IMG/VR virus record: IMGVR_UViG_2693429634_000018
Strand: one strand, 5' to 3'
DNA length: 10,457 nucleotides
From: a virus
Taxonomy: Duplodnaviria > Heunggongvirae > Uroviricota > Caudoviricetes
Both the position numbers and the translations under genes were made by a program. Shown here in pieces: positions 6,162-6,431 of the stretch. The notes under the pieces are model-generated. The model made no database searches and was not told the DNA's origin. It saw only the letters and a list, made by a program, of their open reading frames with translations. Position 1 is the first letter of the stretch. Every line of letters begins with the position of its first letter.

Positions 6162-6431
6162 ATGAATATACTAAAAAAACTTATGCAGCGTCTGTGCGGT
6201 TGCGGAAAGCATGATGACCGTGAAAACGGGGAGTTACTTACAGCACAGCTGCGACTGGGGCCGGCAGACATCCTGGAGTCAGATGAGAATGGCATTATCC
6301 CGGAGCAGGACAGGGTAATCACGCAGGTGGTGATACTGGATGCGGATAAAAAGCAGATACAGTGCGTGGTAAGACCGCTGCAAATCCTGCGTGCTGACGG
6401 GACGTGGGAAAATATTGGCGGGATGAAGTAA
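6162..6431 (+). CDS. Hypothetical 89-aa protein, paralog of the tail fibre C-terminal domain
   Basis: ATG at 6162 lies 1 nt after the tail-fibre TGA stop (6158-6160), with an AGGAGA Shine-Dalgarno at 6151-6156. Residues LRLGPADILESDENGIIPEQDRVITQVVILDADKKQIQCVVRPLQILRADGTWENIGG align with the fibre C-terminus [60 protein letters not shown] (shared RLGPA, NG, P, D, IT, LD, LQ, DG-W). N-terminus MNILKKLMQRLCGCGKHDD carries a CGCG motif. The six-frame track extends this frame upstream to 6030, but that part overlaps the fibre gene and looks non-coding. Confidence 0.5.
   Translation: MNILKKLMQRLCGCGKHDDRENGELLTAQLRLGPADILESDENGIIPEQDRVITQVVILDADKKQIQCVVRPLQILRADGTWENIGGMK

Follow-up and report, generated by a model that had tools for sequence, protein, structure and literature searches.

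A free-standing paralogue of the collagen-like fibre knob encoded directly behind the side tail fibre gene of an EHEC-type prophage

Why does a prophage carry, one nucleotide behind its side tail fibre gene, a second small gene that encodes a diverged copy of the fibre's own distal domain? This question is raised by an open reading frame of 89 codons in a window of 10,457 nucleotides (the whole stretch of DNA that was analysed), which forms the right-hand end of an EHEC-type, lambdoid prophage. The genes and signals of the window are the following, with positions counted from its first letter.

1-648: tail assembly I-like gene
709-4107: J tip-attachment gene
4174-4773: lom
4800-4821: strong hairpin terminator directly 3' of lom
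4838..6160, plus strand: collagen-like side tail fibre of EPclA architecture (PfN - coiled coil - collagen - PfC; PF08400 3e-69, PF01391, PF06820 2e-36)
5588..5929, plus strand: collagen region of the fibre (residues 253-366), 38 uninterrupted Gly-X-Y triplets, from a regular-expression count on the translation, Pfam Collagen and DNA repeat families
5933..6124, plus strand: fibre PfC, the distal trimerising knob (residues 368-431), PF06820 profile positions 1-64 of 64
6061..6067, plus strand: T7 homopolymer within the fibre PfC coding region (Phe-Phe codons)
6151..6155, plus strand: Shine-Dalgarno sequence AGGAG of the small ORF, inside the last fibre codons, 6 nt 5' of the ATG
6162..6431, plus strand: small ORF, 89 aa, free-standing PfC paralogue (Sp5 ORF68, VT2-Sakai orf59, phi24B gp59, PHROG 576)
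6162..6242, plus strand: first 27 residues of the small protein, comprising a predicted short helix (3-11), L-C-G-C-G-K and a variable acidic linker (AF2, low confidence)
6243..6428, plus strand: PfC domain of the small protein (residues 28-89), PF06820 positions 1-64 of 64, 5e-36
6446..6477, plus strand: intrinsic terminator closing the fibre/small-ORF unit 5' of NleG, an 11-bp stem (hairpin 6446-6470) followed by a T run
6641-7288: NleG type III effector gene, 3' of the small-ORF terminator with AT-rich DNA in between
7490-7789: Mutator-family transposase fragment
8032-9249, minus strand: P4-type integrase
beyond the P4-type integrase: formate/nitrite-transporter family gene

The two hairpin terminators, at 4800-4821 and 6446-6470, bracket the fibre and the small ORF as a discrete unit through which late antitermination must read. 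The effector cargo region from NleG onward lies at the boundary between prophage and chromosome. In the genome collection, any complete E. coli genome covers at most 74% of the stretch 4100-9400.

The fibre gene is listed as an ORF from GTG 4832 (442 aa), and ATG 4838 (MAVKISG..., 440 aa) is probably its start. Both the architecture and this start codon agree with the EPclA protein of Ghosh et al. 2012. In that work PfC by itself was a trimer by SEC-MALLS and re-nucleated the collagen helix, and recombinant EPclA was soluble and trimerised without any partner. Our best AF2 model of the fibre PfC (pLDDT 80) is an all-beta domain, and the best BFVD matches to it are some 13 tail-fibre proteins of phages, at a TM of about 0.6. 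The model is thus weakly consistent with PfC being a distal domain of the fibre type.

At the junction, the fibre stop TGA (6158-6160) is followed by a single C (6161) and then by the ATG of the small ORF (6162), which runs to the stop TAA at 6429-6431. The first-pass annotation had described an ORF lying 1 nt past the fibre stop with its own ribosome-binding site, and this is indeed the arrangement, with AGGAG at 6151-6155. The junction sequence GGAGAATGACATG is identical in 81 of 87 loci, and the small ORF is intact in 86 of them. Synonymous diversity in the last 11 fibre codons, which carry the Shine-Dalgarno sequence, is 0.006 compared with about 0.11 nearby, a near-zero value of the kind that an embedded translation signal would give. 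The small ORF is an independently initiated late gene consisting of a short N-terminal peptide and a second PfC knob.

Homology between the two knobs is clear at the protein level. Both proteins match PF06820 (Phage_fiber_C, PfC) over the full profile, the small ORF with 123.2 bits (residues 28-89) and the fibre with 124.6 bits (residues 368-431), where the curated gathering score of the family is 25 bits. By BLASTP, residues 29-88 of the small protein align with fibre residues 369-430 at 23 of 62 identical positions (37%, 46 bits, E=9e-12), and the core RLGPA-I-E-NG-P-D-IT-LD-LQ-DG-W is common to both. The idea that some 60 residues of the small ORF correspond to the last 65 of the fibre therefore stands as to homology, but the alignment ends 12 residues short of the fibre C-terminus. 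At the DNA level, identity over 60 aligned codons is 53%, with saturation at synonymous sites (pS 0.70). We found no direct DNA repeat that links the two segments, and any repeat that they share is at most about 14 nt long. Because of the low DNA identity, the saturation and the lack of a linking repeat, we conclude that the duplication is old, as had been supposed from the moderate DNA identity.

The first 27 residues have no counterpart in the fibre. This bears out one half of an earlier remark, that a CGCG motif near the N-terminus is without parallel there; the other half fails, as CGCG is not a conserved unit. Residue 14 can be C, H, Y or R in E. coli copies, the Cys being replaced in 6 of 78 loci. 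What does recur, in the small protein of E. coli and in its Salmonella orthologue, is the motif M-x-I-[LF]-K-K-[LI]-x3-L-x-G-C-x-K. The AF2 model of the whole small protein is unreliable (pLDDT 51), and sequence and profile searches of the PDB gave no match.

The Salmonella orthologue comes from a Salmonella enterica prophage (L087) that holds the same diverged pair. There, a tail-fibre-type protein of 212 aa, without collagen and without PfN, has PF06820 at its end. A PF06820 small protein of 79 aa overlaps the fibre end by 14 nt, with GGAGG 7 nt 5' of its ATG; a hairpin comes next, and genes for effectors of the NleG and SopA types are found downstream. Identity between the two small proteins is 60%, and dN/dS, taken over the whole ORF and against this single Salmonella lineage, is 0.22. 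Each of them shares 30-38% of its residues with either fibre knob, and between the two fibre knobs identity is 40%. The first 16 residues of the Salmonella protein are kept as the motif given above, and its acidic linker is 10 residues shorter. Since this prophage holds the same pair, the duplication is older than the split of the lineages, and both copies have been retained. As the E. coli and Salmonella fibres share only PfC, the conserved partner of the small ORF is the PfC domain.

The gene is common in its own group of phages. It matches PHROG 576, a family of 89-aa 'tail fiber protein', with residues 1-89 on profile positions 1-89 (E=2.2e-60). By tblastn it is present in 296 phage records, 295 of which show at least 90% identity, and in every phage record inspected it lies directly 3' of the fibre gene. 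Among these phages are some with short tails (the Stx phages VT2-Sakai/Sp5 and AU6Stx1) and others with long tails (434, many Stx1 phages). Wherever a phage record has a fibre PfC (296 of 296), the small ORF is there too. Its place directly behind a PfC-ended fibre is found in the window, VT2-Sakai, AU6Stx1, 434 and the 87 loci. Conservation in related prophages, on which a survey had been proposed, is thus seen both in these phage records and in the 86 intact copies among 87 loci. Among 5,426 complete E. coli genomes, 698 contain the small ORF, at 6,804 places in all (the median positive genome has 11), and a fibre-type PfC occurs at 6,160 places in the same roughly 697 genomes (in strain E2865, 11 and 9 places). 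About 10% of the small-ORF copies therefore seem to have no fibre knob detectable by megablast next to them.

Outside this group the family is very narrow, since an exhaustive HMMER search with a PfC profile against 1.84 billion cluster representatives gave only 90 hits, almost all of them fragments of the same enterobacterial sequences. A scan of species-representative genomes found only E. albertii and a 725-bp contig titled Xanthomonas pisi (L004, NZ_JPLE01000138.1). The small ORF on this contig is 94% identical to the E. coli protein, and the contig is most likely a contamination of the Xanthomonas assembly.

A free-standing copy of the fibre tip had been called unexpected in the first-pass annotation. 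This cannot be upheld, because EHEC/EPEC prophages and Stx phages carry the gene ubiquitously, and it has been both annotated and treated in the literature. RefSeq names the product 'phage tail fiber C-terminal domain-containing protein', and in deposited records it goes by 'hypothetical', 'tail fiber protein', 'tail fiber assembly chaperone' (434B) or 'alternate tail fiber tip', the last with a predicted +1 frameshift. Sp5 (VT2-Sakai) ORF68/orf59 and phi24B gp59 are the same gene, coding for an 89-aa protein that is 94-100% identical and lies at the same position in podoviral and siphoviral Stx/EHEC phages. The fibres differ: that of the window is a siphoviral EPclA of 440 aa, whereas those of Sp5 and phi24B are EPclB of 645 aa. 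Mondal et al. 2016 placed Sp5 ORF68 among the non-essential late genes and found the fibre gene ORF67 to be essential. They suggested that ORF68 is a possible intragenomic reservoir for fibre variation, and they saw no frameshift signal that would fuse it to ORF67. Pfam, PHROGs, RefSeq and that study therefore already cover the gene, the domain that it shares with the fibre and the explanations considered for it. New here are the Salmonella pair, the contrast in selection between the two knobs, the lack of a frameshift signal and the trace peptides of the small protein in phi24B virions.

The contrast in selection was measured as piN/piS in 78 E. coli-type loci (piS about 0.10-0.12), which are non-independent because of many prophages per genome and gene conversion. 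The knob of the small protein (residues 28-89) has a piN/piS of 0.06 with 3 polymorphic positions, the fibre's own knob 0.19 with 13, and the N-terminal 27 residues of the small protein 0.25 with 10. The small knob is thus under stronger purifying selection than the fibre knob. A remnant of cassette exchange, one of the first proposals for this ORF, fits poorly with such a value and with intact copies in 86 of 87 loci.

The small protein is also made. In the supplementary proteome of a 2026 cryo-EM preprint, purified phi24B virions yielded two peptides unique to it, ADGTWENIGGMK and VITQVVILDADKK, with 3 PSMs each, so the proteomic evidence from phage particles that had been envisaged exists at trace level. 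The fibre gave 2,267 PSMs in the same virions and the small protein 6; the preprint's authors place Lom with 23 and Q with 19 PSMs in the contaminant range. These counts indicate that the small protein is translated and argue against a stoichiometric structural role. The portion of the phi24B data examined holds no junction peptide and no N-terminal peptide of the small protein. One row of the supplement table is labelled 'Spike or just gp59?', and the main text does not discuss gp59. Peptides of the fibre PfC occur in the mature virions of the same data set, so the fibre PfC is not cleaved off. Riley et al. 2012 reported an antibody-selected clone, CM22, that covers the small CDS and also the fibre 3' end and is hence ambiguous.

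Taken on this evidence, the small ORF is a real gene, under strong constraint at the protein level, expressed, and coupled by position and translation signals to a fibre that ends in PfC. As to what it does, we tentatively favor a separately translated and probably trimeric paralogue of the knob that acts in trans as a dispensable accessory at the fibre's distal end, a reading we hold to be possible and somewhat short of even chances. Its own Shine-Dalgarno sequence and ATG, the near-invariant 1-nt gap in 87 loci and its place as the last gene before the terminator are in keeping with this. Translation of the small ORF would be coupled to that of the fibre gene and use the Shine-Dalgarno sequence in the last fibre codons. 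By analogy with its 37% identical paralogue, the product may fold as a small beta-rich trimerising domain like the fibre PfC. The free trimer could then act on the distal end of the fibre through homotypic contact between PfC domains, where it would cap the knob, stabilise it or aid its assembly, filling the slot of the tfa-type proteins. Most of it would presumably not be retained in the finished particle.

This role has bounds. The small ORF is dispensable, as Sp5 infects K-12 without ORF68 (Mondal et al. 2016). Thus, fibre trimerisation and infection of E. coli K-12 can both proceed in its absence. Since EPclA trimerises alone and Sp5 does without ORF68 on K-12, any helper role must be quantitative or host-dependent. 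An assembly or accessory factor is our best guess, but not an obligatory one. In addition, the tight co-occurrence of the small ORF with PfC could largely reflect physical linkage in a young, recombining module, and the excess of small-ORF over fibre-PfC places in E. coli genomes tells against the accessory reading, as some copies are kept where no partner is detected.

A narrower form of the accessory reading is that the small protein mimics its client, being a duplicate of the client's trimerisation knob that stacks trimer on trimer as a helper or cap, with the N-terminal peptide docking. We regard this as unlikely in that specific form. If it were true, this would be a kind of assembly or capping factor for fibres that has no relation to Tfa, gp57A or the intramolecular chaperones, and its benefit would be visible only on natural hosts that bear O-antigen, or as fibre yield.

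Several other arrangements of genes and domains at related loci bear on the alternatives. In an E. coli draft genome (L088:1382-3246, GCA_005381265.1), a fibre gene (437 aa), a 92-aa chimera and a normal 89-aa small ORF stand in tandem. The chimera joins the N-terminal half of the small ORF to the C-terminal half of the fibre knob, and it looks like the product of an unequal crossover between the 37%-identical knob segments. At a contig end (L006:1-291, GCA_038404665.1; protein P0064, 2 samples), the start of a collagen stretch is in frame with a knob of the small-ORF type, with about 14 nt of microhomology. This could be a genuine deletion, leaving a shortened fibre that bears the alternative knob, or it may have arisen in draft assembly of repeat-rich DNA. 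A protein of 565 aa from a Logan read-set assembly (P0230) has four tandem repeats of about 80 aa and then a collagen stretch. The ends of these repeats are 35-50% identical to residues 53-89 of the small ORF (VVVLDAD...LQVRRADGTW.EI); the latter half of PfC looks like a fibre module of wider distribution. In Citrobacter rodentium and relatives (L090-L092), a prophage remnant holds an internally deleted fibre of 161 aa (part of PfN, and PfC) and then a small ORF of 78 aa without the N-terminal helix; NleG comes next, and host EamA-family genes adjoin.

Could the gene have nothing to do with the fibre? It might have a host-directed, anti-defence or decoy role with a reused knob fold, or none at all, and be kept by linkage in a young module. 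Such a reading gains from the non-essentiality of the gene (Mondal et al. 2016), its position at the boundary with the NleG effector cargo region, the larger number of small-ORF than of fibre-PfC places in E. coli genomes, and the persistence of the remnant small ORF beside the truncated fibre in Citrobacter rodentium. Against it stands the apparent translational coupling to the fibre inside the late operon, upstream of the terminator. By inspection the protein has no signal peptide or lipobox context, and neither NCBIfam nor PADLOC gives a match to it. The complete lack of a function conflicts with a knob piN/piS of 0.06 and with retention in Salmonella. On balance, we think a role apart from the fibre, or no role, unlikely.

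A structural role at the tip, in which the small trimer sits on the fibre knob in the virion as the real or a second receptor-binding module, appears doubtful, a little more so than a role apart from the fibre. The unique peptides in the phi24B supplement would agree with it, and in other phages this slot in the gene order is taken by adhesin or tip proteins. The four tandem PfC-half-like modules before collagen in P0230 show that such modules can run in series in one chain, and non-essentiality was tested on rough K-12 only. On the other hand, 6 PSMs against 2,267 in the phi24B data is in the range of contaminants, and a 1:1 partner should yield far more. The near-invariance of the small knob (3 polymorphic positions and 0.06, against 13 and 0.19 in the fibre knob) is the opposite of what is usual for exposed receptor-binding tips, and it is our main argument against an exposed tip that determines host range.

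The reservoir proposed by Mondal et al. 2016, in which the small ORF is spare knob DNA that recombines with the fibre 3' end, seems to us less probable still. Rare recombinants between the paralogues do occur (L088, P0064/L006), but they are singletons, one at the end of a draft contig and the other a tandem duplication, not a swap of tips. Among the 296 phage records and the 87 loci, no fibre ends in a knob of the small-ORF type. Against it also stand the DNA identity of only 53%, with no shared repeat beyond about 14 nt, and the strong purifying selection on the free copy. The main argument against a silent cassette is the conservation of its start signals and N-terminal peptide, as the gene has its own Shine-Dalgarno sequence and ATG and a peptide that recurs in Salmonella.

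A programmed +1 frameshift or transcriptional slippage that fuses the two proteins into a fibre with two knobs is very improbable: a slippery sequence and pseudoknot are noted in the AU6Stx1 record, and the small-ORF frame of E. coli copies is open for 46 codons upstream with the T7 run inside it, but there is no slippery site at the fibre stop (GAA-TGA-C), junction RNA folds no better than shuffled sequences (z +0.3, +0.8), third-position polymorphisms of the fibre are second positions of the extension frame, so that the extension is not conserved as coding, the T7 run is interrupted in common variants (GLF and GMF), a TAA two codons 5' of the small-ORF ATG closes the frame in Salmonella, and Mondal et al. 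2016 saw no signal either. The phi24B preprint's search database contained two hypothetical fibre-gp59 fusions ('Fusion_6159_FS1/FS2'), and no junction peptide is present among the supplement entries examined. Slippery site, stimulatory element and coding-conserved extension are thus all missing at the junction, and the earlier suggestion of an alternative distal domain, if reached by read-through or frameshift, finds no support. Three database proteins (P0217, P0214, P0234) shift frame exactly at the T7 run 6061-6067; these changes are probably sequencing errors or pseudogenes in decaying prophages.

How does the accessory protein that we favor compare with known systems? With the fibre PfC of EPclA and EPclB it has the Pfam domain and conserved core in common; the small protein is only 37% identical to it and free-standing, has 27 residues of helix, Cys and linker in front in place of collagen, and is under a threefold stronger constraint. 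Lambda Tfa, Mu gpU and P2 gpG resemble it in being products of small late genes directly downstream of the side tail fibre gene. Tfa proteins are needed by their fibres. There is no sequence relation to this group, as the small protein has no Caudo_TAP match and Pfam at E<=1 returns only PF06820, in line with the first view of the gene as unrelated to lambda tfa. A further difference from Tfa is its homology to the presumed client.

A second copy of the fibre 3' end beside the fibre gene is also a feature of diversity-generating retroelements (the mtd VR/TR pair of Bordetella phage BPP-1) and of invertible cassettes (Mu G, P1 C, e14 P). Neither applies here. Among the identified genes of the window there is no reverse-transcriptase-like ORF and no invertase of the Gin/Cin/Pin type, and the distant P4-type integrase is the only recombinase. 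Unlike a template repeat, the small ORF has just 53% DNA identity to its paralogue, has its own start and is selected at the protein level. The two copies have the same orientation, and inverted repeats around the fibre and the small ORF are at chance level only; this includes an 18-nt imperfect inverted repeat flanking the small ORF (6148-6165 / 6477-6494), which is at chance level for the size of the region.

Receptor-blocking lipoproteins such as T5 Llp and phi80/N15 Cor were considered as well. A lipoprotein signal has a hydrophobic h-region followed by the lipobox Cys. L-C-G-C resembles a lipobox, but the Cys is replaced in the 6 loci mentioned above, and residues 2-11 (NILKKLMQRL), with K, K, Q and R, have no hydrophobic core by inspection. 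An intramolecular chaperone domain of the Peptidase_S74 type is likewise rejected, on the lack of a Pfam match and on the fibre PfC peptides found in mature phi24B virions in the supplement data.

As a discovery, the small ORF adds little to what databases and print already contain. Collagen-like fibres sit on phages by which genes for Shiga toxin and type III effectors are spread among E. coli, and the receptor-binding protein of these phages is still debated, the phi24B cryo-EM preprint arguing that the fibre knob does not bind BamA. The small ORF gives these fibres a conserved and strongly constrained partner gene for the knob.
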